Of a stretch of 37,061 nt of DNA, positions 36 to 32,859 are shown in pieces. The notes under the pieces are model-generated. The model was not told the origin of the DNA. It worked only from the letters and a program-made list of their open reading frames with translations, and made no database searches. A program made the translations under genes and the position numbers. The first letter of the stretch is position 1, and every line of letters begins with the position of its first letter. This DNA comes from Schmidtea nova. Taxonomy: Eukaryota. The stretch lies in contig CM097883.1 of assembly GCA_044892505.1 (NCBI GenBank), positions 132,680,001 to 132,717,061 on the forward strand. Reading direction: 5' to 3'.

Positions 36-305
36 TTATGACCTTTTTCCTAATAAACCAGCACCTCCTAATAATGGCAATGCTAATGGTAACAATGCTG
101 CAATAAATCCTTCTTGCTGTTTATATATTATTTTACGCATTAGTTTTTTATTATTTGTTTTTACAAGTGATAACAAAGGTTTCTTGTGTTTTTTTAAAAC
201 TCTTCTATTGGATTCACTTATATTGATTTTACCTCTAACAACTTTAATTAAAATCGTTAGTAAATCATCAATAACGTAATTAGGAAACGATTGTAAAATA
301 CTCAT
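36..305 (-). CDS. Small basic virion core protein, adenovirus pX/pVII-like (Polinton/adintovirus)
   Basis: 89 aa; Lys/Arg-rich middle followed by hydrophobic tail KQQEGFIAALLPLALPLLGGAG, resembling the GGF-xxLLP motif; adenain-type cleavage consensus (LxGG|x, LxGx|G); lies downstream of the packaging ATPase. Confidence 0.6.
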   Translation of the reverse strand: MSILQSFPNYVIDDLLTILIKVVRGKINISESNRRVLKKHKKPLLSLVKTNNKKLMRKIIYKQQEGFIAALLPLALPLLGGAGLLGKRS

Positions 306-325
306 TCTTCTAATACTAGGTGCTT

Positions 326-562
326 TTAGTAATGCATTGAAAAATGGGAAACTACGATGATGTATTTGTTTCGGATTTGGTTTGTAAGTATTTTGAATAC
401 GATTATTCTTTGGAATATTATCAATAAGTAATCTTTAGATGGTGTAAAACTGGTTTTCGAAACTGATTTCTTTGGTTTCTTTGAAACTAGTTTTTTCCCC
501 GGTTTCTTCATTTTTCTAGCCTTTATCAAGCGTTCAAACTTTACTCGAGATTTCAATAACAT
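326..562 (-). CDS. Lys-rich small Polinton ORF, unknown function (possibly frameshifted)
   Basis: ATG 22 nt after the ATPase stop; KMKKPGKKLVSKKPKK; co-oriented between the ATPase and the pX-like ORF. Confidence 0.4.
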   Translation of the reverse strand: MLLKSRVKFERLIKARKMKKPGKKLVSKKPKKSVSKTSFTPSKDYLLIIFQRIIVFKILTNQIRNKYIIVVSHFSMHY

Positions 563-583
563 TATTGGAAAATATATAATTAA

Positions 584-990
584 TCAACTTTGTTTATAAA
601 CCATGGCTCCTTCCTTGTTGAAAATATCAGTTCTAACTCTTAAATCATCACTACATTGTTGTGTGAAATTAAGGAAAAGATATCCATGAGGAGCTTTTGT
701 AGCATCTTGAAACTCCTCAATCAAGAAATTTCGTTTAGAAGGGTATGCTTTCCTTGCAAGAAAATCAATAACTGTTGCATCCTAGGATTTTAAAAACAAC
801 CAGATATTGAACATTCAAATTACGAGTTCGATGACTGCCGCCCTGATGAAATAAATTCTGAGTAATACAAATAACTGTAACACCCTTGTGTCTAGCGATT
901 TTTGTAAAAAAATTGTTAAAATCCTTTTCTTTATTTGCTTCTTGATACAAATCATCAATAATAATCACATTCCTTTCTCTTAATCTAGAT
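584..990 (-). pseudogene. FtsK/HerA-family packaging ATPase, C-terminal part
   Basis: Walker B VIIIDD, ARH and ITQNLF...RT..LNVQYLVVFK motifs. Adding one base to each of two homopolymers near 780-790 restores FKNPRDATVIDFLARKAYP...HGYLFLNFTQ...LRVRTDIF to the TGA at 584-586. Confidence 0.9.
985..990 (+). repeat. Left 6-bp target-site duplication CTAGAT
   Basis: Identical to 9249-9254; immediately abuts the AGTAGGGG terminus. Confidence 0.95.
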
Positions 991-2487
991 AGTAGGGGAT
1001 AGTGAGGTTACGAGCACAGTTTTTTCCCATAGCAGCGGTTGCTAAGGTTAGTACACACACATCAATATATAATCCCCGAAGAACACGTTGCCAGGGTAAA
1101 TACACACATGTAAATTTATAGTCCTAGTGAAATATGTTGCTAGGGTAAACACACACCAATGTATTTTCTTCGAGGAAACTGTTTCCAGGGTAAATACACA
1201 CATTAGGGTGACTTCCCTGAGGAACTTGTTGCCTGGGTAAACATACATACATACACATCAATATATAATTCTTAATGATAGATGTAGTTAAGGTAACTAC
1301 ACACAGCAATATATAGTCCCCGAGGAAGATGATGTCAAGGAAAATACACACAACAATATATAATCCCCGAGGAACCTGTTGCCAGGGTAAACACATATCA
1401 ATATATAATAATCGAGGAATCTTTTGCTAGAGTAGACACACACATTAAAGTATTGTCTCCTTGGAACCTGTTGCTAAGGTAAATACGCCATTGTGTAACG
1501 GCAGTGACTACTGTTGGTAACATCAAAACAAACAACACATTAATTATTACCCGTAACACACACGATAACATGTTTTTACTTAATCGAACGACGTTTTTGT
1601 TTTAATGTACTGACTAACATTTCGAGTAGTTGTTTATTAATTGATAATTTTTGATATATTATATAATTTTTGTAAAATGATCTTCAGAAAATCGAATATG
1701 AGAACTTTGAAAACGGATGAAATGAATGCGAGAATTGTGACAATAGTCGAAATTTTAAAGACGATTCTACAGAGTGCAACTACAAGAGCAGATGAAATTT
1801 AATAATATTTGTAAACAGAAACAATTATTTTTACATTAAATAAAAAGATTGACACAAAAAAAATGAAAACCCTGAACAATAAAACCGTTTGAAATCTTGT
1901 CAATACATAAAAACTTTAAAAATAATTAAACATAATAAACTAAAGAAATATAAAACTAAATATAATGAAGCCAATTATTTTTTAACAAAGTTTTATTCAA
2001 TACAAATCTGAATTGGATATTTAATTTGAATTGAGAGCTGGATCTGAAACTGGAACACCAACCTGATCTTTTGTTTGGTCTATAAACGAGCCACATCCCT
2101 TATAATGTCCGTATGCAAGACTTTCATTTTTATCAACCCAAAGTCTTTTATCATCAAGATTAGTCAAGGCAATTTTCGAATATTTATTAGTAAAGAGTTG
2201 ATGATTCTTACTAACTATTCTCGACTGATCAACAGAAACTATTGAATTATTATTATAACAATCCAGATACGACTGATGATTCAGTTTAGTATCCTTCAAT
2301 GTTATACCCTTAGCCTTAATGCACTCTTCATCACCTAAAAGACTGTAACACTTTGGCCTAAGGAATACCCACTCATCATACTTGAATCCTTTATTCTCGT
2401 CTTTGAATATTCCAATGACTGAATCTAGGTTCCTACTGTATAATGGGTGATTCGGATCATAATTAGAAGTGTCAAGTAAGTTATCTC
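991..2487 (+). repeat. Left inverted arm (1,497 bp)
   Basis: Reverse complement of 7752-9248 with about a dozen substitutions seen by eye; includes the 3' end of pPolB. Confidence 0.93.
1039..1490 (+). repeat. Subterminal array of ~10 degenerate ~47-bp units (core GTTGCYAGGGTAAAYACACAC...CGAGGAA)
   Basis: Core AGGGTAA-like motif at 1044, 1093, 1142, 1187, 1234, 1290, 1337, 1384, 1429, 1476 (spacing 45-56 bp). Confidence 0.85.
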
Positions 2488-5400
2488 TTATCATGGCCGG
2501 TAAAAGAATATCAAGCTTACAATTTCTAATCTCAAGAAAAAACGAATCGGTGTCACCAGCAACGATGTTAATTTCGCAGTTGAATTCGTTACGATATTTT
2601 TGTAACTCTTCATACTGCAGCTGGTACATCCTAAGTTTAGATAAATCCAGTACAGTTTGGCCAATGTAGCTGGGTCTATCTAAACACACAGAGTCCTTAT
2701 TAAGCAACACAGAAACTAGGTCATCGTCAATCCTATAAGTTTTTCTAAAAGTAGGTTTTGATGTATATGTAATCAGTTTTGATGCTGAATTACATAGTCG
2801 TAAATTGAGTCGTTTCTTAAGATTTTCAACCGTTTTCCCATAAAGACTATTATTCAAGAGTTTGTAATAGTTTTTATCTAAAGCCGTAGAAGAAGCTGCC
2901 ATAAGTTCAGTGTTCGTATCTATGTATATTTTAAAAATAGGTTTCTGATTGTACTGAACAGCCCGATGAACTCGTGTTATTTTAACACCCAAAGAAACAA
3001 AAAGCTTGAGAAGTCTCCAATGAACAACATAGTTGAATTTTGGATAATGCGTAAGCATTAACTTCTCAACTTTTGAACCCGGAGCACACATTTTCTCTGC
3101 TGCAACCGGAAAATCATTTAATTTATCGTGAATTTCTGAAGGGATTTCAAGATCCACTTCAAAAGTCACGCCATAAGTCAAAATAGCCAAATCAGCATCC
3201 ATTAATTTAATTAATTAATTTAATTTATTTTTATCTGTGATCCAACTAAATTCACCATAAGGAGATTTTTGACTTAAAGCTCACCCGTATAAATTATTTA
3301 TGTCAATATATAAAAGTTCAGTCGTTTCGGAGGATACTACATGATGCTTGTTGACAAATGTCAAACCACCACGGATTCCCCCTTCAAAAAAATTATAAAT
3401 CTCCATATCTTGGAGCAACTCAATAGGTTCATCCAAGGTAATAAGCGCAGAAGCCCACGACATACCTGGAATCCCCAAAAAATTCAAAGGCTCAAGTCTA
3501 TTTTGATCTATAGATTTAACCCTAAACTGTTGAAAGAAATCAGCAAGAAGAAAAACATCCAGTTTAAGGTAGACCATCATATAGTCACAAAGAGTTTGAC
3601 ACTGAGATTCCCTCCAAATCACCAATGCCTTGTCATATTCATTTTGTTTAACACCTTTCCAGATTGGTGGCAACTCATAAGTGTTGTTAAGAATTTCTAA
3701 AGATGTTGCAAAATCATAAGGAAAAATACCCTTACAATCAACAATAGTCCCGGCGAATTCAGATCTAGTCAAAGGCAAACAAGTAAGAGTCTTAACAGCG
3801 TCATTTAAACTAGAATTTACAAACTGACAAGAATCGATGAATTTAATGGTTAAATCACCAACCCTTGCAGACAATGTCAAGAATTTTTCACTAGTTGTAG
3901 GAATACAAGAAATTTTCCAAGTTTTAAAATTAGTCAAACCATATTTAAGAATATGGTGCAAGTCATAACCTTTTAAATTATGAAAAATAACGGGTAAAAA
4001 CTTGTATAAACGACGGGATTGATTACAAGAATTACAAGCAGCTCCCAAAAATTCACCAGTGTAATGATCATGGTCTCTGACTGGTTTTACTAAAGTTTTC
4101 TTACAAAGATAACAAATAGTAGCAGAATCAAAAGATTGTTGATTTGCCGATGTCATAAAAAGAGATTTCTTGTAATTAGTTCTATAAAAGGGATAAACAA
4201 TAGTTTCAGAAATATCACTAATTTCAGTAAGAAAATTAGTAACGCAATCAAGACCTAAGAAACTCTTGTAAGTTTTTTCACCAGTAAAGTTATTTACAAG
4301 TAAAAGACCGTCAGATATCGGGACATGTCGTTGAAAATAATTATCATCAGTAGGTAAAATTGCCTCAAAATCGGCATAAACAACAAAAGGTGGGGTAATT
4401 GTTTTACCCTAATTACTAAATTGTAAATCTTTATTTCTAGGCAGAGTATAAAGAGTTGTGCCTAATTGATTTTTAGCACACAACTGTTGATGACAATCGA
4501 ATGCTTCCTGTTTTCGAAATCCATTCAAGCATCGATGACACCATATACTTTGTACGCGAGCTACAGAAAGAGATCTATTGTCGTAATTTAAAAGCTTATC
4601 AAGATCGGTGACTGCAATATAATGATATGCATCACAACTTTCAAACAAAATCAAGTTAATAGGAGTACCGTCAACAACTTTCGACCTATGAATTATATCG
4701 ACACAAGGATGTTTAAAAACTTCAGGGTCTTCCAAGGTATCAAGAAGAGCATCTTCATCATAAGATAAAACATTAATAGCAAGTCCGGGATTTTTAGCCT
4801 CAAATTTTGGAATATTACAGAGTCTCATGGGCATTTCTGAAGGGTCAAAGACAAGATCCGAAAGATTATAATTATGTGCTCTATTTCTATTATTATCTAC
4901 CTCATCATATTTCAAAATAGCCAAGATGCTATAAATGAAACATAAATCATCGAAATTTCTTACGTTTACCGTACAATATTTTAATTGTAAAGATTGAGGG
5001 GTTTCAATATGACCTCTGCCACTCAATCGACTAATTTGAGAAAAATTTTGTTAATACAAAATGGATTTCATTAACTTTGTTAATAACCCAATTACTCCCT
5101 TTATCGTTAATTAATGCTATTTTTTCATTTAAAAGAGTGATACCTTCATCAAAAAAGTTATCACTCATGGGTCTCGCAGAATTTGAAATGATGAAGGATT
5201 GAAATTCTCCATCTTTTTCAAACTCTACATCAATACAAAATTGTATTTTCACTGAACCCATCTCATTAATAACATTATTTAATTTATTAATTAAAATATC
5301 AGGTAAAATTAAAGTTTTCAAAACCAAGTGTGAAACATCCATTTTTACAATAGAGTGAGATTTTCTCAAATCAAATTTAACGTTAGGAAGAAGGGACCCA

Positions 5401-5747
5401 CCATATTGAACATCTATGGTGGTAATGTCATTATTAAAACTTGTGTCAGAGTCGGAAAGAATTTTCATATCGGACATTACCTCGTAAACTATATTACTTA
5501 ATTTTTTAACTTTTGTAGGTAGTGGATTATCGATAAGGATTTTTCTTTTATTATTAATAATATTGTTATCACTATCACTACTATTTATTGTTAAATTAAA
5601 AAGAGATTTTTTCGAAGATCTAAATTTCCTTAAATGATCCTTATGGTCATCATAAAAGTTCAAAAAAGTCGAATTTTGGGTGGTCTTACATACGGGACAT
5701 ATAAAAAACGTGACTCCTTTATACGAATATCGGTAATATTTTCCCAT
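2021..5747 (-). pseudogene. Protein-primed family B DNA polymerase (pPolB), ~1,240 codons, disrupted
   Basis: The four ORFs join into one frame. Motifs: N-terminal CxxC..HxxH; GSNWVINKV...GRGHIETP; YADFE (exoI); endonuclease-VII-like CYLC..VRDHDHYTGEFLGAACNSCN; HNLKGYD; YIDINNLYG; KLLNNSLYGK; GDTDS; RPKCY; KAKGI. Lesions: +1 T near 5041-5047 and in-frame stops TAG 4409-4411, TGA 3281-3283, TAA 3215-3217. Confidence 0.95.
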
Positions 5748-6567
5748 TAATTCAATGCATTTATTGTTATGAATTGATGATCGGCAAAAATTCGGAAAAA
5801 GTTTACCTTAAATATAAAAAATAATTAAAATATGAACAATAAATGTCAAGTATTTTAATATAAAAATTAATGTCATTATACAATAATTAATATAAATTAA
5901 TTAATAATTACAATAATAAAAATTTAATTAAATAATTTAAATATTATGAAAACTAATATTAATTAATTTCAATTATTATATTCTTAACTAGAATTGTTTT
6001 AATAATAAGTTTTACTCAAAGATGTAAAATATACAATTAATATAAAAGTATTAATTTAATATAATAACTTTCATATAGAACACATTATTTACTATGATAG
6101 AAAATAAATTATTTATTAATAATTAATTTACAAAAACTTTAATTACTAGAAAATTATTAAAAATAAAACAATAAGTAATATTAATCAATATTCAAATTAA
6201 TTTTATATTAAAATTAATTAATTAATTATTATAAAATATTAGAATAATTATAATTAAAACTAGAATTGTTTTAATAATTAATTATAAAATAAAAATTCAA
6301 ATTTATGTAAATAATTTTCAAAAATTAATTTAAAATAATTTAAAATTTAGATAATTCAGCTAATTATTTTAAGTTGTCATTAGTATTTATTAACTTATCA
6401 ATAAATATTACAAATCTTATTGAATAATAAATAAAGATTAATTATTACATTACAAAATCGATAAAGAAAAATAATTCCTAAATAATTAAACTTAATATTT
6501 ATGAACAAAGGTAATTAATTATAAATTGAATTTAATAAATCAATTATTAAAATAAATCAATACTTAC

Positions 6568-6840
6568 AGTTATTTTCTTTTATTTTTTCCTTTTTCAGTT
6601 TATTTTTTATTAAACTATCCATTGTTTCAGATGCTTCAACATTGTAACCAATAAAGTTGTTCATATTGTTGTTGACATCGTTGTTGTAATCATTGATCAT
6701 GGTAATATCCATATTGTTGTTGGTGTTGTTCATTTTATCTAAAATAAGTTGATTGTTTAAAAATTTTAAAACAAAAATTAACTTACCAAATTTAGGTTGC
6801 AGTAAAAAGTGATTCTTAAATGAAAAACTATTGTTTATAT
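6568..6840 (-). other. Small spliced gene inside the inner element (TATA, 5' exon, 48-bp intron, Asn-rich 55-codon exon, second donor)
   Basis: TATATAAA at 6833-6840; intron GTAAG..TTTTAG 6786-6739; ATG 6733 reading MNNTNNNMDIT...KNKLKKEKIKENN; next GTAAG donor at 6567; downstream exon not found. Confidence 0.5.
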
Positions 6841-7751
6841 ACTAAATTCAAAAATTTTTAACCGATCAAATTCAAGGAAACATACACACACACGTTTGTA
6901 AATACCACAGTGTAATTTATTTTTACAATTAAATTTTTTAAAAATTATTAAACACATAATTTATTGTTATAAATATATGTCATCATTTAATGATAAATAT
7001 CAATTATTATTAAAATACAATGTAATAAATTAAGATTAATTTTAAAGTTAAATTACACTAATAAATTATAAAAATTATTACAAGTAATTAAAATTAAATA
7101 AAAAAAAAGTTTAATTATTCGATAAATTGTAAATTAATTGAAATAAAAATTAATTAATTAAAATAAAAATTAACTAAATAAAAGTTAACTAATTATTCAC
7201 AAAGTTATTAGTTTTTACATAATGTATTATTGTAGAGAATTAGAATATAAATTGTTACAGTGAAAACACAATTAAAGAATCAATCAGCAAATGAAATCAA
7301 TTATTTACAACAAAACCCATCTGTAACACGATAATTTTTAAATTTCTAATTAAACAATTTAGTGGAAAATTTATACATATAATGAAAACTCTAAAAAATT
7401 ATTTTAAAATTACAAAAATAACAAGAAAAAATGTGTGCAACAAGAAAAATGACTAATTTTATATTTTAATTTAAGCCATTTTATAGGAAATTAAATTCTA
7501 CATATACACTGTTAATGTGAAAACTCATTATCTTTATTTCAACATCAAAGAAAACCAATTAATAACAACAAAACATGTGTGCAGCGCGCAAAACACAACA
7601 TTTTAAATTTCCATTTTGGCCATCTTGTAGAGAATAAATTTCTGTCTATACATTGTTACAGAGAGAAAAACGAATAATTTCAATTTGAGGCACAAATAAA
7701 GAAAAAAGAAAAACGGGAGAAAAATTAAAAATGTTGATAGTAGAGTAGGGG

Positions 7752-8218
7752 GAGATAACTTACTTGACACTTCTAATTATGATCCAAATCACCCATTTTA
7801 CAGTAGGAACCTAGATTCAGTCATTGGAATATTCAAAGACGAGAATAAAGGATTCAAGTATGATGAGTGGGTATTCCTTAGGCCAAAGTGTTACAGTCTT
7901 TTAGGTGATGAAGAGTGCATTAAGGCTAAGGGTATAACATTGAAGGATACTAAACTGAATCATCAGTCGTATCTGGATTGTTATAATAATAATTCAATAG
8001 TTTCTGTTGATCAGTCGAGAATAGTTAGTAAGAATCATCAACTCTTTACTAATAAATATTCGAAAATTGCCTTGACTAATCTTGATGATAAAAGACTTTG
8101 GGTTGATAAAAATGAAAGTCTTGCATACGGACATTATAAGGGATGTGGCTCGTTTATAGACCAAACTAAAGATCAGGTTGGTGTTCCAGTTTCAGATCCA
8201 GCTCTCAATTCAAGTTAA
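7752..8218 (+). pseudogene. Duplicated C-terminal ~155 codons of pPolB within the right arm
   Basis: Near-identical to the end of the 2021-3202 ORF (RPKCYS, KAKGI, DDKRLW); no start or N-terminal domains. Confidence 0.92.
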
Positions 8219-8748
8219 ATATCCAATTCAGATTTGTATTGAATAAAACTTTGTTAAAAAATAATTGGTTTCATTATATTTAGTTTTATATTTCTTTAGT
8301 TTATTATGTTTAATTATTTTTAAAGTTTTTATGTATTGACAAGATTTCAAACGGTTTTATTGTTCAGGGTTTTCATTTTTTTTGCGTCAATCTTTTTATT
8401 TAATGTAAAAATAATTGTTTCTGTTTACAAATATTATTAAATTTCATCTGCTCTTGTAGTTGCACTCTGTAGAATCGTCTTTAAAATTTCGACTATTGTC
8501 ACAATTCTCGCATTCATTTCATCCGTTTTCAAAGTTCTCATATTCGATTTTCTGAAGATCATTTTACAAAAATTATATAATATATCAAAAATTATCAATT
8601 AATAAACAACTACTCGAAATGTTAGTCAGTACATTAAAACAAAAACGTCGTTCAATTAAGTAAAAACATGTTATCGTGTGTGTTATGGGTAATAATTAAT
8701 GTGTTGTATGTTTTGATGTTACCAACAGTAGTCACTGCCGTTACACAA

Positions 8749-9200
8749 TGACGTATTTACCTTAGCAACAGGTTCCAAGGAGACAATACTTTAATGTGTG
8801 TGTCTACTCTAGCAAAAGATTCCTCGATGATTATATATTGATATGTGTTTACCCTGGCAACAGGTTCCTCGGGGATTATATATTGTTGTGTGTATTTTCC
8901 TTGACATCATCTTCCTCGGGGACTATATATTGCTGTGTGTAGTTACCTTAACTACTTCTATCATTAAGAATTATATATTGATGTGTATGTATGTATGTTT
9001 ACCCAGGCAACAAGTTCCTCAGGGAAGTCACCCTAATGTGTGTATTTACCCTGGAAACAGTTTCCTCGAAGAAAATACATTGGTGTGTGTTTACCCTAGC
9101 AACATATTTCACTAGGACTATAAATTTACATGTGTGTATTTACCCTGGCAACGTGTTCTTCGGGGATTATATATTGATGTGTGTGTACTAACCTTAGCAA
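8749..9200 (-). repeat. Mirror copy of the ~47-bp subterminal array
   Basis: Reverse complement of 1039-1490. Confidence 0.85.
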
Positions 9201-9248
9201 CCGCTGCTATGTGAAAAAACTGTGCTCGTAACCTCACTATCCCCTACT

Positions 9249-9254
9249 CTAGAT
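9249..9254 (+). repeat. Right 6-bp target-site duplication CTAGAT
   Basis: Directly follows ...CCCCTACT; identical to 985-990. Confidence 0.95.
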
Positions 9255-9469
9255 GACCAATTTTTATCGAAACCTTTTATGATTATCATTTTTATTTTAC
9301 AAAATTGATCTTGAGTCATTCCATGTTCTTCATCTGCACCCCTATGCCAATTAATTTTATTAAACTTTGATTTGAATAATTTTGACTGTAATAATTTACA
9401 AACAAATAAAGTTTTTCCACTCCCGCTCGGTCCAACAATTTGAGACACTGCATCATTTCTTAATTCCAT
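9249..9469 (-). pseudogene. FtsK/HerA-family packaging ATPase, N-terminal part
   Basis: Walker A GPSGSGKT. Removing 991-9248 and one TSD copy joins it in frame to the 584-984 part (NWSSR|LRERNVIIIDD). Confidence 0.92.
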
Positions 9470-9560
9470 ATTTCTAATTTTATTATATTATTATTGTTTA
9501 TATTTGTTTTAAATAATAATTGTTTTTATTATTGTCATATTTAAAATATTTTTATTAATT

Positions 9561-10020
9561 ATTAGCAACATAAATTATAAGGGTAGGACTGATGTATCGT
9601 ACATGAATTTTCCTAAGTGGAAACCACAACAAATTGTAGATAGAAGTGGTAAATATCCGATAATATATTTTAAGACCGGGAGATTTAGAATTATGGGATG
9701 CAAGGAATTTATTAGTGATGAAAGGGTAAAGTTTTACGACTTAACAATCGATTACTGTAACCGCAGACTTGGGATTTAATTGTAATTTAACTGATTTGGC
9801 TAAATTAATAGAATGTGTTTACGAGTCAGAATTATTTCCAGCTTCGAGATATACAAAATATAACCCCATGTGTGTTAATATATTTGCAAGTGGTAAAGTA
9901 ATTATATTAGGTTTAAAACCTAGGGACTATTTAAATATAGTTGATAATATAATTATGGATATAAAATCAATTATTGAAGATAAAGCCTTTGTTGATATCA
10001 TATTATCGTGTAACTCATGA
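9561..10020 (+). pseudogene. Divergent TATA-binding-protein (TBP)-like gene, one frameshift
   Basis: Second TBP repeat: ITVTADLGFNCNL...YESELFPASRYTKYNPMCVNIFASGKVIILGLK (cf. YEPELFPGLIYRM..P..VLLIFVSGKVVLTGAK). First repeat in another frame: ISNINYKG...PQQIVDRSGKYPIIYFKTGRFRIMGCK. Frameshift near 9745-9755; start codon uncertain. Confidence 0.75.
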
Positions 10021-10193
10021 TTGCAATAAAGATGCAAAATAAATGCACGATTCTGATGGGTTCAGTGTGTATTTCAATAATAAAGACATGTTATGCATAC
10101 TCGAATCTGATTGATTGATTGCGTGTTTGATTTTCTTGTGTGTTACTTTGGTATATATACAATGAACATTTTACATTCATTTATAATTTTACA

Positions 10194-10593
10194 ATGTGTC
10201 TCAAAACAACTTTGGTGAAATATGGTAAAGTTTTAAATTTATCATTTTTCTTTTTTATAATATTTATTTACAGATAAATTGATGGCCGTACTGTTCGGCA
10301 AAATGGAGGTAATGTTTCCAAGTCTGATGTCCAAACTAGTCTACACGGCTCCGGAGAATCTCCCAATCAAAATCCTTTCAATCACCGGGATTGATATAAA
10401 TAAAATAGTGTTTGACCATCTGGCCAACTTGGAAATGGAGTTGCCGTTCATGGCAGAACATATTCTTTGTGCCTACCAATACGGGCACTGCACGGAAAGA
10501 ATAGAGAAATACCGAATTTGGCTATTGAGAAAAGCTCTCAAAAATTTCGAGATGGAGTCTCGTAAAGAAAAAGAAGAAAACGAAGAAAAATAA
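10194..10593 (+). CDS. Two-exon orphan gene (10194-10224, 10274-10593), ~116 aa
   Basis: TATA-like TATATATA ~10152; ATG 10194; 49-bp phase-1 intron GTAAAG..TTACAG (10225-10273) splices in frame into ORF 10279-10593. The frame stays open ~30 codons past the TAA. Confidence 0.6.
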
Positions 10594-10809
10594 GAATGGC
10601 CCAACTGCACTCCCGATGAATCGATGGATTGCATCAGGCCGAATACTACAAATTCTCAGGCTAATTCTCCTTTAAATAGTGAACTCATTTTTTATTCGGT
10701 TTATTTTTGAATTTTCTAGATGTTATGATTCACAAATTCCCAAAATACTTAAAATTATCATGCAAAAATTATCTAAATAAAATTACGAAAATAAAATTTT
10801 TTTTTCTCC

Positions 10810-10985
10810 CATATCTTCTGACGATCCGTCCAGCCTTGCGTTGTGCAGATCTGTTAGTAGCCTGGGTGGATCGTTGTCTGATTGGTAATCGGCCAGCCCA
10901 TATTTCCACTTTAAGGTGAGGCTCATACATCCATAATCACGTCATCCCAACTGGGGAATCGTGGTATGGCCAAGAGCAAGGATTT
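10810..10985. repeat. Dispersed repeat family A, copy 1
   Basis: Shares GTAGCCT..GTGGATCG, CAGCCCATATT, CTCA.ACATCCAT.ATCAC and TGGGGAA...TGGCCAAG..CAAGG blocks with 26505-26690. Confidence 0.75.
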
Positions 10986-12779
10986 GTTATACTAATGATC
11001 TTTATTATAATAGAGTAGCATATTCTTATTATTTTACATAAGAAATTTCGTAATATAACACAACATTTTCTAACTCATGTCTTGAAATCTAAAATAGGAA
11101 ATATAACTGATTAAAAATCGACTCGTACTCACCTTCACCTTCACACTCTCAACAACGATCATCTTATGCGAAAAACACAAGAAAAATTGAAGCTAATGTC
11201 GAAAAGAAAATTGTTCGAAGTAATGCTCAAGCTAGTATAACGATCACGAAATGAAACGAATTGCGAAACAAGTATTGATTTGATTTTACTCGAGGTCGAA
11301 AATCTTCTTGAGGAATTTATAACTTATTTCATTTTATTTTTATTCAGTATATAAAACCTTTTAGATCAAATTCTTATTTGGATCGAAAAATTTGTAGATA
11401 AAAATTTGTTATGTGGATTTCATTTGGATAAAAATAAAATTTACTTTTTATTATAATGCAAAAATTTTAAAATGAAAAGCTGTAAACCAAAGATCTTCCT
11501 AATATTGTTATTCTATAAAAGATTTTGTCATTTTATAAAATTCAAAAGAATTTATAAATCAAGAATTGTATCCAAACCCAGAAAAATTATAAATCGAAAT
11601 TTTATTATCACATTAATAATTTTTATCATTTTATAAAAATCCAAATTCGAAATTTTATAGAAAAATTTTATGATTAATATATATATTCTAAAATATAAAA
11701 ATTTAAATTCAAAAACCTATATTATAAAAATTATAAATATTATCATTATTTAATTTTCATAAAATTAGAAATTAGAAATCCGTAAAAAGTATTATAAAAA
11801 TTAGTATTATTATTTTAATTTTAAAATTATTATTATTATTTTAATTTTAAAAATATTTTATATAATTTATATATAGTATATTATAACTACCCCCACGATA
11901 TCTCAAAATCATAAGGCATCTCTAATTGCAAATAATTACACCCTTTTCATTCAATAGCATCATCCATACTAATACACAAGCAACCTCTAATTAAAACACA
12001 ATATACACACATACACCGTATCATTCAATAACATTCAACAGTTATACACACACAAGCAAACCATACCAAAAATTCCACACAGACATGTTAGTTAGCATCG
12101 TACGTCTAACCACACTCAATTGTTCCCGTCACCTATCCACAAATCACACGCAAACACAACAGTAACAATAGAACACACAGTCATTATGTCTCGTCTCATT
12201 CAACTATGACGACATACAACTCATACATTCACAAACAATAGGAAAACACCCAAACCAGTTTTTTTTAATTGTATTCTAGTTAACTCATTTCACCAACACT
12301 AGTTTTCCCCAGCTCCCAATACCCCGGGTAAAAACAATTTCACCTATAGGCAATATAGTTCCTTATCCACATCAAAAAGATAATACGCAGCGAAATATAT
12401 CGAGCTAAAATCATGTATAACCAATTGAAAGGTCCTCTAACAAACTATATCCTCTTAATAGGATAAAATCGATTTCGCATAAAACTGAGTCCACATTACA
12501 ACTTTCAGTGTTGTATAAAGAGAAACCCAGACATAAAAAGTGTAACGATAATATAATAAAAAAATTATCATAACAAAATTAGAAAACTTTTATTTATTTA
12601 ACTACTCACAAATGAAACAAATATCCCAAGCGAAAAATATGGAAAACTTCATTCGCAATGTTAAATTTTAAAATTCCAGCAGGAAGACTTCTGGATAAGA
12701 ATGAAAATTGTCAGCGGTGAGATATCTTCAACTCTAAAATTAAAATTGATAATTGTGAGCTAACAAAATATTTGTTATG

Positions 12780-12975
12780 TTTACCTTCATGTCTATCAAA
12801 TGCCTTGGTCGAGAATTCTTTCCACATAGCCTTGCTGGTATTAACATCTAGAGCATAAATGAAAGGCATAAAAAGAAAAAGTTATTAAGTTGCCTTACCA
12901 GTCGATTTTTGTTTTTCAAAGTAATAAAGAATCTTTGTTCATGAATTGTTCCCACGTACGCCTGGGGTGTCGACC
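12780..12975 (-). pseudogene. Degenerate exon-intron remnant of unknown gene
   Basis: Two short exons bounded by TAG acceptors and GTAA donors with a ~57-bp intron; the second reads DVNTSKAMWKEFSTKAFDRHE; the first contains stops. Confidence 0.3.
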
Positions 12976-13399
12976 GTCAATTCCTAAAATAACGGCTAAA
13001 ATAAAAAAGTTTTTATAATATTTATATTACCTTTGAGGAGTTATTTGAATTGGTGTCGTTTTTGAGATGTGCCTTGATTATTCCAACAACGCTTTAAATT
13101 GTTTTTTGATAAGAATGAACATATTGGATTTAGATAAAAATTAAAGTTTTGGATTTTTAAATACAGGAAGAAAATTTATTTAAAAAAAAAGAAATTTTTT
13201 TTATTTATCCTGAATCGTAATATTATTTGTTATTTACCGTAAATTGTAATATTAGTGAAATTTCATGAATAATTAGTGTTTTTGATGCTCGGAATAATAT
13301 ATTTGGATGTAATAATAAATTTAAAATTATGTAGAATATTTATGTTGAATTTCCGATAATATTTTGATGAATACTTAAAGCTAAAACATGTAAGGAGGG

Positions 13400-13632
13400 A
13401 CAAAATGGGCATTAAACATTCTATCGGTAGCCCTTGGACCCAGGAGATATTCGGTCAATCATAGTTTCGTATTGACGACGCTCACTGATTGCGAATACCC
13501 ACCCACTTGTTACAGTACCAACGTTAAATAGTGACGGGTAACAAGATGGTAGTTTAAATGTTTTATGTGTTGAGTTGTTGATGAGAGCCATAGTAACGTC
13601 AAGGTCATATTGACGATCAACAACCCACCAAT
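13400..13632 (+). repeat. Dispersed repeat family B, copy 1
   Basis: TTCGGTCAATCATAGTTTCG and TTTTATGTGTTGAGTTGTTGATG...GACGATCAACAACCCACC blocks recur at ~21975-22215 (inverted) and ~32860-33028. Confidence 0.85.
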
Positions 13633-13997
13633 ATATATAATTGTCATTTTTATATATGTTGTCATTTTGTTATGATTTAATAAATGTATATTTATATATG
13701 TCTTCCTTTTTTTTATTTTAGTTTAGTTTATTTTAAAGTGAAAAAAGTCTTTAATGTAAAATAAATTATTAAAGTAAAAAAAAATCTTTAAAGTAAATTA
13801 ACTTTTTTAAAGTAAATAATTTTCTGTGATATGTTTTTAATTCTGAAAAAATAATTTTTAATATGATAAAAAACACGATAATTAAAGATGATCAACACTT
13901 TAATTAAACACGCATGCATACATACAACAAAGACACACACATATATGCATACTAACAAAGACATGCATATCATGTGCAGTTTGAATGCATCATTTTG

Positions 13998-14030
13998 ATT
14001 GGACAAAGGCATTACTCACCACTATAAATA
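13998..14030 (+). promoter_or_regulatory. Pol II promoter (inverted CCAAT + TATA) of ORF 14067
   Basis: ATTGG 13998-14002; TATAAATA 14023-14030, ~37 nt before the ATG. Confidence 0.5.
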
Positions 14031-14066
14031 CAAAGACAATTTTAAGATATTGTCACAATTTCAAAA

Positions 14067-14483
14067 ATGCCAGCTCGTAAATCAACTTATGACATTAGTG
14101 AAGAAAGAAAATTCAATAATGAAGTGAAACCGGTTCAAATGTATTTCGATTACAAAATTTTTTTCTTGGTACAAGAAATACCATTTCGTTTGTCGTATCC
14201 AGTGAAATTAACAAAGTTTTTGTATGACAATTTAGCTGCAAATCTAAGTAAAGAAGATGTTGTTGCACTAAATAAAGTTTTATTCAAAATCAATAACAAT
14301 TTATGTTGCAAGGAAACTATATGGATCAACAATCGAAAACCCCGTTTCCATGATGCTTTCCAATCTATCGAATACAAGGATCAAGAAAATTGGTTTATTA
14401 CCATAATAATTCAGGGATATAAAATCGATACAAAAGATGTTATAACTCCAATTTGGAGAATTGACAGTGCGCGATATGCATAA
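14067..14483 (+). CDS. Intact intronless orphan protein, 138 aa (probable Polinton accessory gene)
   Basis: AAAATGC start context; TATA upstream; AATAAA at 14509-14514; natural composition; beta-rich C-terminus WFITIIIQGYKIDTKDVITPIWRI. Confidence 0.7.
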   Translation: MPARKSTYDISEERKFNNEVKPVQMYFDYKIFFLVQEIPFRLSYPVKLTKFLYDNLAANLSKEDVVALNKVLFKINNNLCCKETIWINNRKPRFHDAFQSIEYKDQENWFITIIIQGYKIDTKDVITPIWRIDSARYA

Positions 14484-14623: not shown

Positions 14624-14811
14624 NNNNNNNNNNNNNNNNNNNNNNNNNNNNNNNNNNNNNNNNNNNNNNNNNNNNNNNNNNNNNNNNNNNNNNNNNNNNN
14701 NNNNNNNNNNNNNNNNNNNNNNNNNNNNNNNNNNNNNNNNNNNNNNNNNNNNNNNNNNNNNNNNNNNNNNNNNNNNNNNNNNNNNNNNNNNNNNNNNNNN
14801 NNNNNNNNNNN
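14624..14811. other. N-gap or hard-masked stretch
   Basis: 188 N flanked by TTA-rich low-complexity sequence. Confidence 0.95.
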
Positions 14812-15029
14812 ATAAGTATTATTAGTATTTCCATAATAATACATGTGTGTTTATTACAAATTAAAAATTTAAGTTTTAATATAAGTATTCGAAAAATTAC
14901 AACAAATTTCATTAGTCTTTGTTTCGTTGCACATGGATTGCAATGTCTTTGTTTGAATTGGGGTAGGAAATAGTCGTTGAAAATAATTACATAACACACA
15001 AACACACATACACCATACTCGTCTGACAA

Positions 15030-15360
15030 TTACCTTTTGTTTGATATACATATTATAAAGTTTTAAAAATTTGAACCTCGGACCCTTCAAGGGTATGACC
15101 TTTGTGTGCACATCTCAATTAGCTTTTGTTTGATACCCATATTATATATATTTTAGACCCTTTAAAGGTTGAGCACCCACCATACACCTTCGACGGTATG
15201 ATCACCATACTCACTTCTCAATAACCTTTTGTTTGATACCCATATTATATGGTTTGAAAAAAGTTGAAGGTTTTTGACCCTTTAAGGGTCAATGACCCTC
15301 CATAGACCTTCAAGGGTATGACAATTGGATAGACCTCTTCAAGACCTTTCGAATGATACC
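15030..15360 (+). repeat. Three degenerate ~90-110-bp tandem units
   Basis: TTTTGTTTGATAYMCATATTATA near 15035, 15124 and 15226, each followed by GACCCTTYAAGGGT-type palindromic motifs. Confidence 0.7.
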
Positions 15361-15407
15361 CTTGTTTGAAGGTTTGATCTTTGGAAATTCAAATTTGAAA
15401 TTTGAAA

Positions 15408-15605
15408 TAACTCATCGATGACGTCATAAAATTCAAATTTGAAATGAGTCATCGTGATGAGTCATCCTCGATGAGTAATACCTATGCGTCATCCGGATGA
15501 GTCATAAAACATTTTCCCCCGTGGGGAGGCGGTAGAGAAAAAATGAGTCATTGATGAGTCATATGTCTTTGTTCTCGATGACTATCTACTTCATAACTAT
15601 CTACT
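15408..15605. promoter_or_regulatory. Dense AP-1/CRE-site cluster ending in a duplicated AGTAGATAGT terminus-like motif (candidate Polinton TIR end)
   Basis: TGAGTCA at 15445, 15458, 15498, 15544, 15555; TGACGTCA at 15419; variants TGAGTAA and TGCGTCA; ACTATCTACT at 15581 and 15596. Confidence 0.6.
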
Positions 15606-17012
15606 TATGAATCAATGTGTATTATTATGTAATAACTATATGAAGCAATATGTTCTTCTGTAATAAACTTCAATATTATGTCATAGGTCTAAAGAATTTG
15701 AGAAATCTCATGCAATTTTTGTATTTTTACGTAAAACTTATTCAATAAAAATGGATAATTATGCAATTATTGAAATAAAAATATAAAATCACGTATTTTT
15801 TACGTTGAAATTACGTTAATTTCCAAAATAAATTAATGGTGTGGCCTATTCAAAAACATATTGGGGGTCTCTGGGATATTTGGTTTAATCTAGATAGCTA
15901 AAATTCCTCTACTGGAGAGTTGTTAAGAGTGTTATAAATGAGCTATCAAAAGATAGTTAGCATTAACATAGGAATAATCTGATCATCCCGAGGAGAGAAG
16001 GTCGAATTGGACTGATCATCGCAAATCATGGGATGAGTCGACGATTTTTTCTGCATTTTTGAATTAGGGGAAAAATTTTATCTATTTTAGAAAGCAAATC
16101 TATGCTAAAAGCATAGTTAGAGTAATGGTGCATATAAATTAAAATAAAATAGGAATTTAGCAATATTAGAAAAATTGTGAATTATTTATAAAGAAAATTA
16201 GGTCTGATGAATGAATTTCATAGTAGTGCTATAAGAGAAATAAGTTATAGGTATAAGAAAAATTAAAATAAAAAAGATAATGTTTAATTAGAAAAAACGT
16301 GAGAAATAATAATTTAAGGTATGCCGGGAAGTTTTATATCTTTTCATTGGTCAAGGATTTTATAAATTAAGATAGATAGAGAATTTAAGAGTAATAGAAG
16401 ATATAGAGATGTGAAAATTAAAGAGAAATAAGATCGCAAACTTCTAAAGTTATCCGCCAACAACTCTATCATTGGTTATTTACTTTTAGTATATCATCGC
16501 AAACTCTGACCATAGTTGGAACAACTTTACTTGCTATTTATATCATATTTCTATCAATGATAACAAAGACATTCAATATGAAATAGTAATATCAAAATGA
16601 AAACAAATGAAAATACTGCGGGAATCTATGTTTAAAGATCAAATCAAAATGCTTATCGGAATAGTTGCGATTCCCATAGTAGATCTATCGAAATCTATAA
16701 ATAAAAAATATTTACGAAATATCCAATTCCATTCATCGTAACGATAGCGAATCGCAATCAAATAAATCAATTATTTCTAAAAACAATTCAAATACTCTCC
16801 TCTCATTAGTCCGCCTAAATTTAGTAACACTCTTCATTTTATTTTTATATAAAATTCAATGCGATTCTGATGTGAATAAAATCAAAATTCTATCAATGCA
16901 TTTCAACAGTTTCATCAAGATTTTGTTTATATCGATTTATCAGTTCAATTTCCAATTGGAATTGGCATCAAGTCTCTGTGCTCCAATGCATTCACAATCG
17001 TCCATTAGAGGA

Positions 17013-21866: not shown

Positions 21867-21974
21867 TTTAAACATGGGCAAATAACAGAGATGAGTACAA
21901 AAATAGAAAAAGTTGATTATTTAAGTAATTAACGTGCGTCAAATGACACCATATTGGAATTTTTTAGAATTAAT

Positions 21975-22215
21975 GATAATGGTGGGTTGCTGCCCGTCAA
22001 TATGACCTTGACGTTACCATGGCTTATCATCAACAACTGAACACATAAAAATATTATTTCACCCTCTTGTTGTCCGCTCCAAAAGTAACGTTGGTTATGC
22101 AACAAATGGGTACACATCCGCAAACAGTGATCGTTAAAAAATTCGAAACTATGATTGACCGAATGTCACAATGAGTTTAAGGACGATTGATAGAAGATTC
22201 TTTGCCCATTTTTCC
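21975..22215 (-). repeat. Dispersed repeat family B, copy 2 (inverted)
   Basis: Reverse complement aligns with 13400-13632. Confidence 0.85.
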
Positions 22216-28250: not shown

Positions 28251-28309
28251 TTTAACATTGTAAGTGGTGAAATTATTTTGCATCTAACGATTAAGATGCT
28301 AAAATCCAG

Positions 28310-29346
28310 TTGCTGTTTCCAGATATTAAAATGTATTCCTTTTTTGCTTCCACTAGTGGAGAACAACTTTTAAAATGCAATACTGATACTTCAGACATAA
28401 CATTATACAACTCCAGTGATCTAATAAGTGATTCGATTTTAATTAACGGAATTACATTTTCTAACTTGCATTTAGTTGTATGGTTTTCAAACGATGACAA
28501 TTCTAAAAACATTATTTATCTGTATAATATAAAAGTAGGTGATACCGGATCGAGAATGACTTCAAAATTACTTGAATACCCACTTGAGTATTTTAAGATA
28601 TCCAAAGTCAAAATTGCCGTCCACCCTTTTCCTCATTTATCATGTACAATCATTGAACAGTATAATTGTATTTTGAGTGAACATTTTTGCATGGATGATG
28701 TAGATATATTGTTGGTTATAATGAATCTCTTTATGATATTATGCTAGAACAAATAAATGTAAAAGAGCTGGTATTGCATCATAGTAATAGATTGGTAGCC
28801 CAAGTTTGTAGTTCGTCAACAGCCTCTAGTAGATTTGAAAATGAAATATACAGTAATTTTTCAGTATTATCAAATCTTGTTCGTTATCCAAGAATAAATT
28901 TTCCAGTAGCTAGTTACATACCATTCGGTTCAGTGACAAACATAGAAACGTATAAGACATTCGAAATTTTGAAATACAATCTACATTCATTTGAAGAAGA
29001 AAATACTTGTTGGTATCGAGATTCTATTAGCAAATTATTGACGAACATCAATCAATGCTCTACAATGGCGAACCCGAGTTCCAACCATATGTTTAATAGT
29101 AAGAGTTCTTACATTGTTCTATGGCTAAATGCTGGGTTTATGGGGACCATTTCCAAACGAACACTAAAATATCAATTAAACATTAAAGATAAATTTTCTA
29201 TATTATTCAACTCGTTAAACAAGGAATATAATGTCAAAACACACGAGTATGCACTCATTTATAACAACCCAACAATTTTAACAACAGACAACCCAGAAAC
29301 ATTAGGAATGTGCAACAATTCATTCATTGACATTTACTACCTTTAA
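28310..29346 (+). pseudogene. Highly divergent alpha-tubulin-like gene, frameshifted with internal deletions
   Basis: VGDTGSRMTSKLLE (GGGTGSGFTSLLME); IIEQYNCILSEH (VVEPYNSILTTH); after a frameshift near 28730, NESLYDI (NEAIYDI); SNRLVAQVCSSSTASSRFE (LNRLIGQIVSSITASLRFD); NLVRYPRINFPVASYIP (NLVPYPRIHFPLATYAP); WLNAGF (WCPTGF). Confidence 0.85.
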
Positions 29347-29354
29347 GTGGTGGT

Positions 29355-30105
29355 GCCGACAATAATGATAAGCTCGAGTTGATTGCACAGTTTGATCCTT
29401 TTATGGCCGAACACATAAAAAATTATGGTGACAGCGGTTCTGGAAAAACAAACTACCTCTCAAAGACTACATGTGAGGAGTTGATCGTATTGATGGCAAG
29501 AAAAGTTTTGCAATCAATCAGCGATGATGTTCTAAATACGAATTATTATGGATTATCAGTAGACTCGACACCTGATGTGAGCCACAAAGATCAACTATGT
29601 GTGATCTCGAGGTACATTGATCAGACTTCTAATGAGCCAATCGAAAGATTTGTCAACTACATCCACATCGATAATCACACAGGGGAAAATTTAGCAAATG
29701 AAACTGTGGGCTTTTTAGACGAAAGATTGAACTTGGAAATCAGCAACTGCAGAAGCCAGTCTTATGATAACGCGAGCAATATGACTGGACAATATATAGA
29801 CATGAAAACTAAAATTTTGGAACTCAATAAGCTGGAAAATTCTTGCCATGTTCAGGTCATTCTCTTAACTTAGTGGACTGTTGCATCGAAAGGAATAAAT
29901 TTTTTCAGTATTGTTCATGAACTCTACAATTTTTTCTCTGTTTCTACAAAGCGATGGAGTATTTTGGGACAATTGGCAAGTAGTTCATTGAAATCACTAT
30001 CGAATAATCGATGGAGCGCTCATGCTGACACGGTCAAATCCATTCAGCAAAGATACGACAAATTGATGGAAGCATTGCTCACAATCAATGAGAGTGAAAG
30101 TTTTT
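29355..30105 (+). pseudogene. hAT transposase fragment (ZMYM1/DUF4371-like)
   Basis: LIAQFDPFMAEHI; NYLSKTTCEELI; YYGLSVDSTPDVSHKDQL; ERFV; QSYDNASNM; then frameshifted HSLNL, YNFFSVSTKRW and LKSLSNNRWSAH; truncated at both ends. Confidence 0.92.
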
Positions 30106-30507
30106 AATTACTTTGGTCGCGCCAACTTTGTAAAATATTAAAAAAGTAATTAAATAAAAATAAAATAGTAAAAGGCGGGGCTTAAAGCTGTGAGAGATTG
30201 TGGGGCGAGCATGGAAGTCTGAAGCCGGTAAACGGTATTATCGAAATCTATATAAATCGTATATGATATGGTCTGTGCACAACAACATGGGCAGTGCAAT
30301 TGACATTCACTCTGCTATTAAATCTGTGATACCTTCACTAGTCGGATTAGTTGTAGTTAATGTTGTTGAAGGATCGGCTCTCGGCGCATTATACAGTATG
30401 AATAATTATCTTCACAACAGACCATGTGTTTTCCAATCACTATTTCATCAGCATCCCAACTCTCGGACTATAGACTTAATCGATTCATCGATTCCTCTAA
30501 GTGCTCA

Positions 30508-31923
30508 TCAATTGTCTCCTGAATTATATTCCTCAAAATTACAATTTTCTTCGACATCGTTTATATTTCCCACAATTTTCTCATCGACAATGCAGTTTTC
30601 TTCAAAATTATATTCATTTACTGCCCGCTCATCTTTTACTACCATTGTCGATTCAATTTCCGTCATTACTTCTTGCACTAATTCGTTTGAAGTAGTATTT
30701 ATTCCATCCTCGCTTGCAATATCAACCGACCCAAATTTGTCAATCATTTCACCAGACACACCACCATTCATCGCGCTATTCTCACTTCGACCTGAATTCA
30801 AATCGCCATCACCAGTTCGAACCTCACCAAGAACTGCTTCCTGAGCTTTAGGTGCAAAACTCTCGATACATTCCTCTTTACACTGTTCTTCTCGATAAGT
30901 CACGATTGACCTGTTTTGATTCTCGGTTTTCTTTTTACTGTCATCCATTTTTATCACAGGAAAATGTCGCAGTCCACATTGTGGACGTGGGTACCTTCTA
31001 TTGTCAATCTTTTCAGAAGCCTTGCAGTGTTTCTGCCCGTACTACCAATTGAAATCCTTTTTCTGACCCAATCCATATAATATCTCATTTGTCGCTCGTA
31101 TTAGTTCGGCTTCCTTTTGCAACCACTCCTTTAACCGTTTTACTGATTCCTCACTTTCATCTTTTGCATGCTCTCTTTTCCATTGAATAAGTAGAGAAGC
31201 AGGTAATTTCTTCAACAGTTGTTGTAAGATACAGCCTCTCTGTATGTTCTCTTCTCTTCCAATTGCCTTAAACCGTACTTCCATGGATTCCAGCAATCCA
31301 ACAAAACTATCCAAATCTTTTATTTCTCCTTCGCAAACCGGCATAAACTTGTCTACAGTTTCTAACATAATCAGGTAACTACGTTCTTCACCTCCGTATC
31401 GCCTTTCCAATTTATCTTTCGCCATTTTGTAGCCTTCGGCGGTATAACCCAGTGGCTCTGTCATTCGCAGAGGTTCACCTAAGAAGTACTGCTTAAGATG
31501 CAGCATTTTTTCTTCGGCTGTTTCATCTGCCTTATCTATTACCGTGTTGAAGGCCGCCTTCCAATTTTCAAACTTGATCACTTTCCCATCGAAAATCGGA
31601 ATCTTAATTTTCTGCAACCGATTTAAACTCTTCTTTTCTCTTGGCTCTTCACCATCTGACGTTTTCGACCCTTCAATTATTACACTTCCTTTCTTAATTT
31701 GCAATATTTTATTTATCTCTTCCTTCTTTAATTCGATTTCACCAATATCTTTCTCAACTAACTCCATTTCCTCGTTTTTGTCTAATCTTTCACATAGTTC
31801 CAACAGTCTTTGCTATTCGTTCAAGGCCTGTTAAAATTCTTTCTCATATGCTTCTAGTGAATCCTTGAGCTCCCCATTTATGTCTGCGAGCAATAAATTA
31901 CGCATTTGACTCACTCTCCATTT
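30508..31923 (-). pseudogene. Bel/Pao LTR-retrotransposon Gag (DUF1759-like)
   Basis: IKIPIFDGKVIKFENWKAAFNTVID; EKMLHLKQYF; GYKMAKDKLERRYG; LLKKLPASLLIQW; degenerate Zn-knuckle (HCK...PQCGLRH); in-frame acidic tail; stops at 31831, 31813, 31042. Confidence 0.85.
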
Positions 31924-31971
31924 TTAAGATCGCTGACGGGTCCATAAACTTTTGAACTCTTCCTCATCATT

Positions 31972-32235
31972 ACCACCTCTTAAACGAAGAACAAGATGAA
32001 GAGTAGATTCTTTTTGAATGTTGTAAACTGACAGGATTCTTCCGTCTTCCAATTGTTTACCCGCAAATATCAATCTCTGTTGATCAGTAGGGATTCCATC
32101 TTTGTCTTGAATCTTTGCTTTTACTTTCTCAATAGTGTCCCTCGATTCAACTTCCAGTGTTATTGTTTTACCTGTTAAAGTTTTAACAAAAATCTGTATT
32201 CCACCTCTCAATCGCAAAACAAAATGCAAAGCTGA
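31972..32235 (-). pseudogene. Polyubiquitin fragment: C-terminal remnant (..[12 protein letters not shown]) plus one full 76-aa ubiquitin
   Basis: [17 protein letters not shown]...[12 protein letters not shown] at 32199-31972; 68/76 identical to canonical ubiquitin by manual comparison; all seven Lys and the terminal GG retained. Confidence 0.97.
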
Positions 32236-32622
32236 CTACGTTTGATTTTCTGTCACTCGCGAACTATAATCTTTTAAACTTTTCCTTTCATCACCACTTG
32301 ATATTGAATAAAAACGCACTAATTCCCCTATTTTATTCATATTTACCCTGTCTTCATGAATACCTAATTTAATATTTTTAGCAACTTGATCATAGAAATT
32401 TTTATAATTACTTTTATCTCCCATTACTCCTACAAAAAGTTCTAAGCCTTTTCCCACTAACTCTTTTCTGATTACTTTCAAAATTTTATTTTGTTGCAAC
32501 ATTTCCCGGCTGATATTCAATAGAAGATCTTCACTGTCATAACCAGTCCACCTACTAACCTCTACACCTTTAAATATCAAGTTATCTTTTTCTATACATG
32601 TTGCCTCGTAAGCAGGTGACAC
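32236..32622 (-). pseudogene. HSP90: Cytosolic Hsp90 middle-domain fragment
   Basis: [25 protein letters not shown]; [20 protein letters not shown]; [20 protein letters not shown], matching Hsp90 [25 protein letters not shown]...[10 protein letters not shown]...SGDEMVSLKDY..RMKENQ. Confidence 0.95.
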
Positions 32623-32657
32623 AATTTTATCTCTTTGTCTATTTAATTCAATAAATG

Positions 32658-32718
32658 ATCTTTGTTTATTTTCAACTTTATTAAAATCTTTATGAAAAGT
32701 TTGAAAATAAACAAAGAT
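32658..32718. repeat. 18-bp perfect inverted repeat with 25-nt spacer
   Basis: ATCTTTGTTTATTTTCAA (32658-32675) / TTGAAAATAAACAAAGAT (32701-32718). Confidence 0.8.
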
Positions 32719-32859
32719 AATTTTGGAATGATGTTCATATTTTTTTGTTCGTGATGATTGAGGTAATACTAATAAAATTTTATTGATGTAATTATTTATT
32801 TTGGTCTGCCGATTGAAAACCTTATCAATAATTTATAGATTGATTATTGAATAAGTGAC

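Follow-up and report, generated by a model that had tools for sequence, protein, structure and literature searches.

A polymerase-only Polinton derivative in Schmidtea nova with 1.5-kb inverted arms and an internal seam that matches both of its host borders

The stretch of DNA analyzed here, called the window in the following, comprises 37,061 nucleotides of contig CM097883.1 of the Schmidtea nova assembly GCA_044892505.1. At positions 991-9248 it contains an 8,258-bp element, which is a non-autonomous, polymerase-only deletion derivative of a Polinton and not an autonomous member of that class. One feature of this element is unusual: a seam at its internal junction (7736-7751, plus strand) is tiled by the element's own two host/element junctions. 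We propose, with a probability of roughly 55%, that the right end was rebuilt by template switching during repair, at or after integration, with the left arm as the template. This reading of the sequence is supported by the seam, which is wholly tiled by both borders including bases of the target-site duplication (TSD), and by the edge of the arms, which lies within the coding sequence of a polymerase gene whose 3' end is internal in relatives. It is also supported by the arms, which look younger than that gene, and by the transposon Galileo, which shows the same product together with a repair model.

The left arm (991-2487, plus strand, 1,497 bp) begins with 5' AGTAGGGG, and the right arm (7752-9248, plus strand) is its inverted copy and ends with CCCCTACT 3'. 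Comparison of the arms revealed 13 substitutions in 1,497 positions (99.1% identity) and no indels, in agreement with the first-pass annotation of this DNA, which had described both arms as exactly 1,497 bp long and ~99% identical. Its statement that the arms run ~155 codons into pPolB, the protein-primed polymerase gene, was also correct: the last 467 bp of the gene lie inside the left arm (2021-2487) and are duplicated in the right arm (7752-8218), where tblastn aligns the copy with residues 1097-1240 of the closest full-length homolog. The right arm begins within the pPolB gene, and the arm edge cuts through coding sequence. The same annotation had placed the arms beyond a normal terminal inverted repeat (TIR). 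With regard to length this does not hold, as 1.5 kb lies at the upper end of what has been reported (46-1,447 bp for intact vertebrate Mavericks according to PMC8097293; 100-1,500 bp for Polintons in general, with a TSD of 5-8 bp, usually 6, according to bioRxiv 2023.08.22.554363); what is abnormal is a TIR edge that cuts the polymerase gene.

The termini, 5'-AGTAG...CTACT-3', are near, but not identical to, the (AGT)2 or (AG)3 motifs given in PMC8097293. An array of approximately nine degenerate 45-49-bp repeats follows at 1043-1486 (plus strand; mirrored at 8753-9196) and is probably part of the native TIR; no Rfam family was matched in 900-2500. Further inward, a 41-codon open reading frame (ORF) oriented toward the polymerase (1678-1802, plus strand) is duplicated in the right arm and has no homolog among the 42 loci compared. 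The four N runs of the window all lie outside the element, and the arm and seam structure is confirmed as real at the assembly level.

The whole unit is flanked by a single TSD, as had been noted earlier, with the sequence CTAGAT at 985-990 and a perfect 6-bp match at 9249-9254 (both plus strand). The target site forms a palindrome of 8 bp (983-990), within which the left TSD lies, offset by one base from the palindrome centre. As judged from homology, the element is inserted in the packaging-ATPase gene of an older, decayed Polinton. The 3' part of this gene (587-984, minus strand) shows 62-79% identity to the ATPases of the related loci L013 and L015, with a further frameshift near 785, and the 5' part of the same interrupted gene, including the Walker A motif, is found at 9255-9505 (minus strand). 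Pfam Pox_A32 was found on the L013 and L015 homologs. The flanking matches are adjacent in L015, where window positions 587-985 correspond to 10287-10687 and 9257-9502 to 10695-10949. Because the flanks match adjoining stretches of one ATPase gene, both outer ends are anchored and the TSD is confirmed. The single TSD had previously been taken to mean that the element integrated as one unit. This conclusion goes too far, as the TSD shows only the joint integration of the outer ends and would be kept through a later internal rearrangement.

The terminus-like 13-mer AGTAG-AGTAGGGG is located at 7739-7751, directly before the right arm, and its last 8 nt equal the first 8 of the element, exactly as first annotated. 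On the plus strand of the window, AGTAGGGG occurs at positions 991 and 7744 only; the chance of this 8-mer is 2.4e-6 per site and 4.8e-5 within 20 sites. A longest-match search of 900-9300 on both strands revealed that 7736-7743 is identical to 988-995, that is, three TSD bases and the first five bases of the element, and that 7741-7751 is the reverse complement of 9241-9251, that is, the last eight bases of the element and three TSD bases. The two matches overlap by three bases. That the seam matches TSD bases of both borders, and that the polymerase is broken, are points beyond the earlier annotation. In a control with 27,768 hexamers from outside the element, 1,012 give the first match and 664 the second, while only 8 (0.03%) give both; at a relaxed 2-base level both matches are given by 278 of the 27,768 (1.0%). 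Because a free genome could not access the TSD of this site, the seam suggests synthesis on an integrated copy rather than on a free genome.

From the observed anatomy, TSD, interrupted ATPase gene and seam matches we infer the following course, in which we have reconstructed the succession of events, the way in which synthesis ran, the enzymes at work and the content of the lost interior. A Polinton, or an already shortened derivative of one, would have been integrated by an rve integrase into the ATPase gene of the older Polinton, creating the 6-bp TSD. At or after integration, a break would have led to the loss of the right-hand interior, and the surviving right TIR end may then have invaded the identical left TIR. 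Synthesis would have overrun the native TIR, crossed the small ORF, entered pPolB from its 3' end and halted at 2487. The free end could then have switched, on a 3-base microhomology, to the right host/element junction, copying eight element and three TSD bases, and by a second switch, again on three bases, to the left host/element junction, copying five element and three TSD bases, before being linked to the opposite side of the break near 7736. The predicted outcome is an element with 1.5-kb arms that retains only the polymerase and carries a 16-bp patch derived from its own two borders. We tentatively add a narrower idea, which we regard as rather doubtful: the seam may be the fossil of a Polinton integration intermediate, formed when the integrase was still bound to both ends and both 6-base gaps in the target were as yet single-stranded; the broken strand would have primed on the three gap bases beside each end in turn.

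Several points weigh against repair on the integrated copy. The seam statistic was picked post hoc and rests on two 3-base matches, and we therefore take it as roughly 1 in 100; one of these matches (TAG) also equals bases 3-5 of the terminus itself. For the switch from 2487 to the terminus, no more than 1-2 bases of microhomology are available, and one extra G is required. A 5-base match, TGATA, found at 7735-7739 and beside the arm edge, suits a simple fold-back equally well, and an 8-base match to 1428-1435 within the arm equals the left-border match in length. Moreover, no older inner TIR boundary is visible in the pattern of arm mismatches, so the event would have taken place at or soon after integration, or nearly the whole arm would have been overwritten. 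The 13 mismatches are evenly distributed (Kolmogorov-Smirnov p 0.92; outer versus inner parts p 0.4-1.0), which fits either arms that were identical at integration or the copying of nearly the whole arm. If the event occurred at or soon after integration, it does not explain the excess of stops in the polymerase described below.

The pPolB gene, with an HNH/EndoVII insert, occupies 2021-5747 on the minus strand and was identified with Pfam PF03175 (above cut-off) and PF02945 and by tblastn with full-length homologs. It spans the full homolog length (start near 5747, end 2021), yet it is broken by in-frame stops at the codons at positions 4411, 3283 and 3217 and by one frameshift near 5040. The divergence of the arms corresponds to 0.43% per copy, from which 0.58 stops would be expected in the 3,260 bases of single-copy polymerase, versus the three observed (P 0.021; 0.078 at the upper bound). 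The single-copy polymerase also has the frameshift, whereas the arms have no indel. On this basis the arms look younger than the polymerase gene, and the excess of stops and the frameshift suggest a polymerase that was decaying before the arms were last identical, or was dead on arrival. This excess and the even spread of the arm mismatches pull in different directions. Within the duplicated piece of the gene the arms differ at four positions, two of them silent and two residue-changing.

pPolB is the sole recognizable gene within 991-9248. Upstream of it lies an AT-rich single-copy region (5748-7735) with a 58-codon ORF (6733-6557, minus strand), for which an Atlas search gave no usable match, and a promoter-like motif. 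The sequence 6825-6897 is similar to L027:66-150 (72% across 85 nt) and precedes the small ORF here and the polymerase gene in L027; we consider the shared sequence a candidate early-promoter motif. A remnant of a native TIR was also sought in the upstream region and not found: five of six local alignments to the arm fell within the shuffle range; the sixth (6412-6532 versus 1892-2014) scored 52, with a maximum of 49 in 100 shuffles, and is AT-rich and located behind stop codons. No rve integrase was found with Pfam, and the L013 integrase gave no tblastn match in the window at E 1. ATPase, protease and capsid genes were not found within 991-9248, and the scanned element ORFs of at least 80 aa gave no Pfam hit to a P-type transposase. 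Because the integrase, ATPase and capsid genes of its relatives are absent inside it, we assign the element to the non-autonomous Polinton derivatives. It has the 6-bp TSD, the 1,497-bp TIRs with short terminal repeats and the (broken) protein-primed PolB gene of a Polinton, and it lacks the rve integrase, the ATPase, protease, major and minor capsid genes and the 13-25 kb size (here 8,258 bp) of autonomous members. The element has no function of its own today, and it could be mobile only with integrase and polymerase from another element.

The C-terminal piece of pPolB has 446 longer homologs, with a top identity of 64%, and a metagenome scan yielded 37 related polymerase loci. The two longest of these encode an rve integrase and an A32-type ATPase, together with a double jelly-roll capsid protein (Atlas feature score 0.98; a domain of this type on 65% of the top cluster). 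For the analysis of gene order we used the 20 loci that continue for 600 nt or more beyond the polymerase match and dropped the 17 shorter ones. Downstream of the polymerase, 13 of the 20 carry other element genes (in 5, a protease/capsid block) and 7 show no match. It is important to mention that the 13 loci are not independent, since two were the source of the reference proteins and several probably represent a single element, and that their protein identity of 29-63% does not place them in the same family. This gene order says only that the 3' end of the polymerase gene is usually internal in this clade. If the parent of the element had such an order, the capsid block beside the polymerase would have been lost in addition to the other end of the element; if its polymerase faced the parental terminus, a single event would have been enough.

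The gene order after the polymerase is variable among loci L006-L042, with a convergent protease/capsid block in 5, a convergent small core gene in 4 and a co-directional ATPase in 3. Extra ORFs encode a ubiquitin-conjugating enzyme in L015 and a dual-specificity phosphatase in L016. No terminal inverted pair was found in any of the 37 metagenome loci, none of which is complete. Five exact matches to the terminal 17-mer were attributed to chance, as no polymerase or core-gene hit was present at any of them. Scans of IMG/VR with the polymerase piece, the polymerase alignment, the ATPase of a relative and a capsid alignment found no relative, and the nearest full-length polymerase had no match in the phage collection. 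Part of 2488-9260 is present in seven sequencing runs from three studies; we do not read the small word shares (0.05 and 0.06, with a further 0.21 from a soil metagenome) as evidence of habitat.

The first-pass annotation had favored either a copy-back genome made by template switching or a compound of two inverted copies. A template switch that copied the left arm to the right end is indeed the best reading; the setting of a free genome is not, since the seam has TSD bases from both borders. A copy-back event before integration would start from a free linear genome, whose displaced strand breaks, folds back and extends on its own 5' arm (panhandle repair), with the terminal bases supplied by end-jumping; the defective genome would then be replicated and integrated with helper proteins. 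This course would suit the even spread of the arm mismatches, as expected of arms identical at integration, as well as the TGATA match at the fold-back point, and a helper-dependent genome could already have carried a dead polymerase. Truncated mavirus-like elements with regenerated TIRs are also known (PMC8547959). The structure of the arms fits one end copied to the other, but the seam carries the TSD bases of this site, and both matches would have to be left to chance (0.03-1%). To our knowledge, no DNA can be linked to the 5' side of a protein-primed start. We rejected slide/jump-back, cited in the first-pass annotation as the way in which protein-primed polymerases initiate on short terminal repeats, as the source of the interior AGTAG-AGTAG, both on this ground and because the mechanism, as described in PMC5175343, recovers terminal bases and yields no duplication. 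A free defective-interfering genome is thus less likely than chromosomal repair. The compound, in which one of the two copies would be reduced to 8-13 bp of its left end, for example in an inverted dimer stabilized by central deletions, appears very unlikely. The seam does resemble a left end directed toward the right arm; this reading, however, requires two deletions that spare 8-13 bp between them, has no positive support, and leaves the TSD matches of the seam unexplained. Neither a 7739-9248 nor a 7744-9248 unit has a TSD (preceding hexamers GTTGAT and TAGTAG, versus CTAGAT).

The seam also bears on whether the structure could be a chimera of assembly or amplification, in which the TIR of the true right end would be shorter and the inner part of the right arm would derive from the other haplotype or a sister copy through a chimeric molecule. 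The window is a gapped scaffold with four N runs, and amplification chimeras templated on integrated DNA would probably also account for the TSD bases in the seam. We nevertheless consider this improbable: no N lies within the element; the outer ends sit in consecutive halves of one ATPase gene, which is not what a simple fold-back into the left flank would give; of the 13 sites at which the arms differ, 6 fall in the inner 888 bp; and a mosaic of 8-11 bp would be too short for repeat collapse by an assembler. Still less probable, in our view, is that the element represents a fixed non-autonomous subfamily, or a family natively equipped with 1.5-kb TIRs that include the polymerase 3' end, and is one of many identical copies. 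TIRs of ~2 kb containing hexon and adenain genes are described in mobile polintons of Pieris and Euchloe (bioRxiv 2025.02.07.637071), and four runs of one organism from one study contain 58-68% of the sampled words of 2488-9260, a share from which copy number cannot be inferred. Against this stand the seam, which matches the TSD of this particular site, and the internal position of the polymerase 3' end in 13 of the 20 informative relatives, although these are not of the same family.

Outside the element, the remains of the older Polinton extend over 36-990 and 9255-14483 and were identified by homologs in L013 and L015. In addition to the split ATPase gene they include a small core gene (102-359, minus strand), a TATA-binding-protein (TBP)-like gene (9552-9978, plus strand) and an ORF at 14139-14474. 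The TBP-like gene is shared within this Polinton clade (L013:10321-10779, L015:11333-11806 and window 9552-9978; Pfam TBP above cut-off), and TBP figures among the genes of adinto-like viruses in a figure legend of PMC8502044. Arrays of ~100-bp and 13-bp repeats at 15011-15610, together with two TATCTACT motifs behind them whose ends lie at 15590 and 15605, are possibly the right terminus of the outer Polinton. A dispersed repeat of ~270 bp is present in three copies in both orientations, 72-83% alike (13310-13667, 21941-22212 and 32767-33033). Degraded fragments of tubulin, DUF4371, DUF1759, ubiquitin and HSP90 are clustered at 28295-32832 and are possibly gene pieces captured by another transposon. 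The HSP90 fragment scores best on animal proteins (human 125 bits, insect Hsp83 117, yeast 91), a weak sign of an animal host on which none of the conclusions depends; we take the matched Hsp83 entry to be from an insect, and the residues of the ubiquitin fragment are presumably of the animal type. The four N gaps (14624-14811, 34812-35130, 35455-35652 and 35679-35966) are of uneven size, as in a scaffolded assembly, and a 215-nt "palindrome" at 35455-35872 is an artefact of these N runs.

The finding is a modest one, as it concerns a single dead copy. The locus nevertheless offers a base-level clue that TIRs can be rebuilt in the chromosome, at or after integration. TIR recovery after truncation and the variation of TIR length in Polintons and virophage-like elements are noted, and unsettled, in the accessible literature. 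If the seam were the fossil of an integration intermediate, it would be direct sequence evidence that Polintons integrate by concerted strand transfer through gapped intermediates, as retroviruses do, and TSD-bearing seams would be a signature of TIR regeneration or lengthening that can be counted across genomes.

Among known systems, the element resembles Polintons/Mavericks (polintoviruses, adintoviruses) with an HNH-bearing pPolB in its 6-bp TSD, TIRs, AG...CT termini and EndoVII/HNH insert; such inserts mark a group of pPolB proteins according to bioRxiv 2023.08.22.554363. It differs from them in its size of 8.3 kb, the absence of integrase, ATPase, protease and capsid genes, the broken polymerase, the TIR edge in the polymerase gene and the terminus-like patch in its interior. 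In the Galileo "2RT" copies of Drosophila mojavensis (PMC3573991), sequence beside one TIR is likewise repeated, inverted, before the other TIR. The same paper reports the longest TIRs in non-autonomous copies, proposes repair of one TIR on the other with recruitment of internal sequence, and cites TIR expansion for Polintons too. Galileo differs in being a cut-and-paste transposon of the P-element family, and the Discussion of PMC3573991 contains no border-derived seam patch. Truncated mavirus-like EMALEs (endogenous mavirus-like elements) of Cafeteria have regenerated TIRs; one of them has a TSD with 1 mismatch, another a TSD of 7 bp. These are virophages of a protist, and neither seam nor mechanism is described in the accessible text of PMC8547959. 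The Pieris and Euchloe polintons, whose ~2-kb TIRs duplicate core genes (bioRxiv 2025.02.07.637071), are full-length, mobile and present in many copies, and they duplicate capsid and protease genes and not a polymerase fragment. Long, gene-containing or regenerated TIRs have thus already been published (Galileo, EMALEs, Pieris), and the arms themselves are not new; at the level of titles and abstracts, where most subscription papers were beyond reach, we found no Polinton described with a copy-back genome or with TSD bases in an internal seam. In copy-back defective viral genomes, adenovirus panhandle repair and poxvirus terminal transposition, an inverted copy of one end takes the place of the other. 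These products arise on free replicating genomes, whereas the seam described here points to the integrated state.

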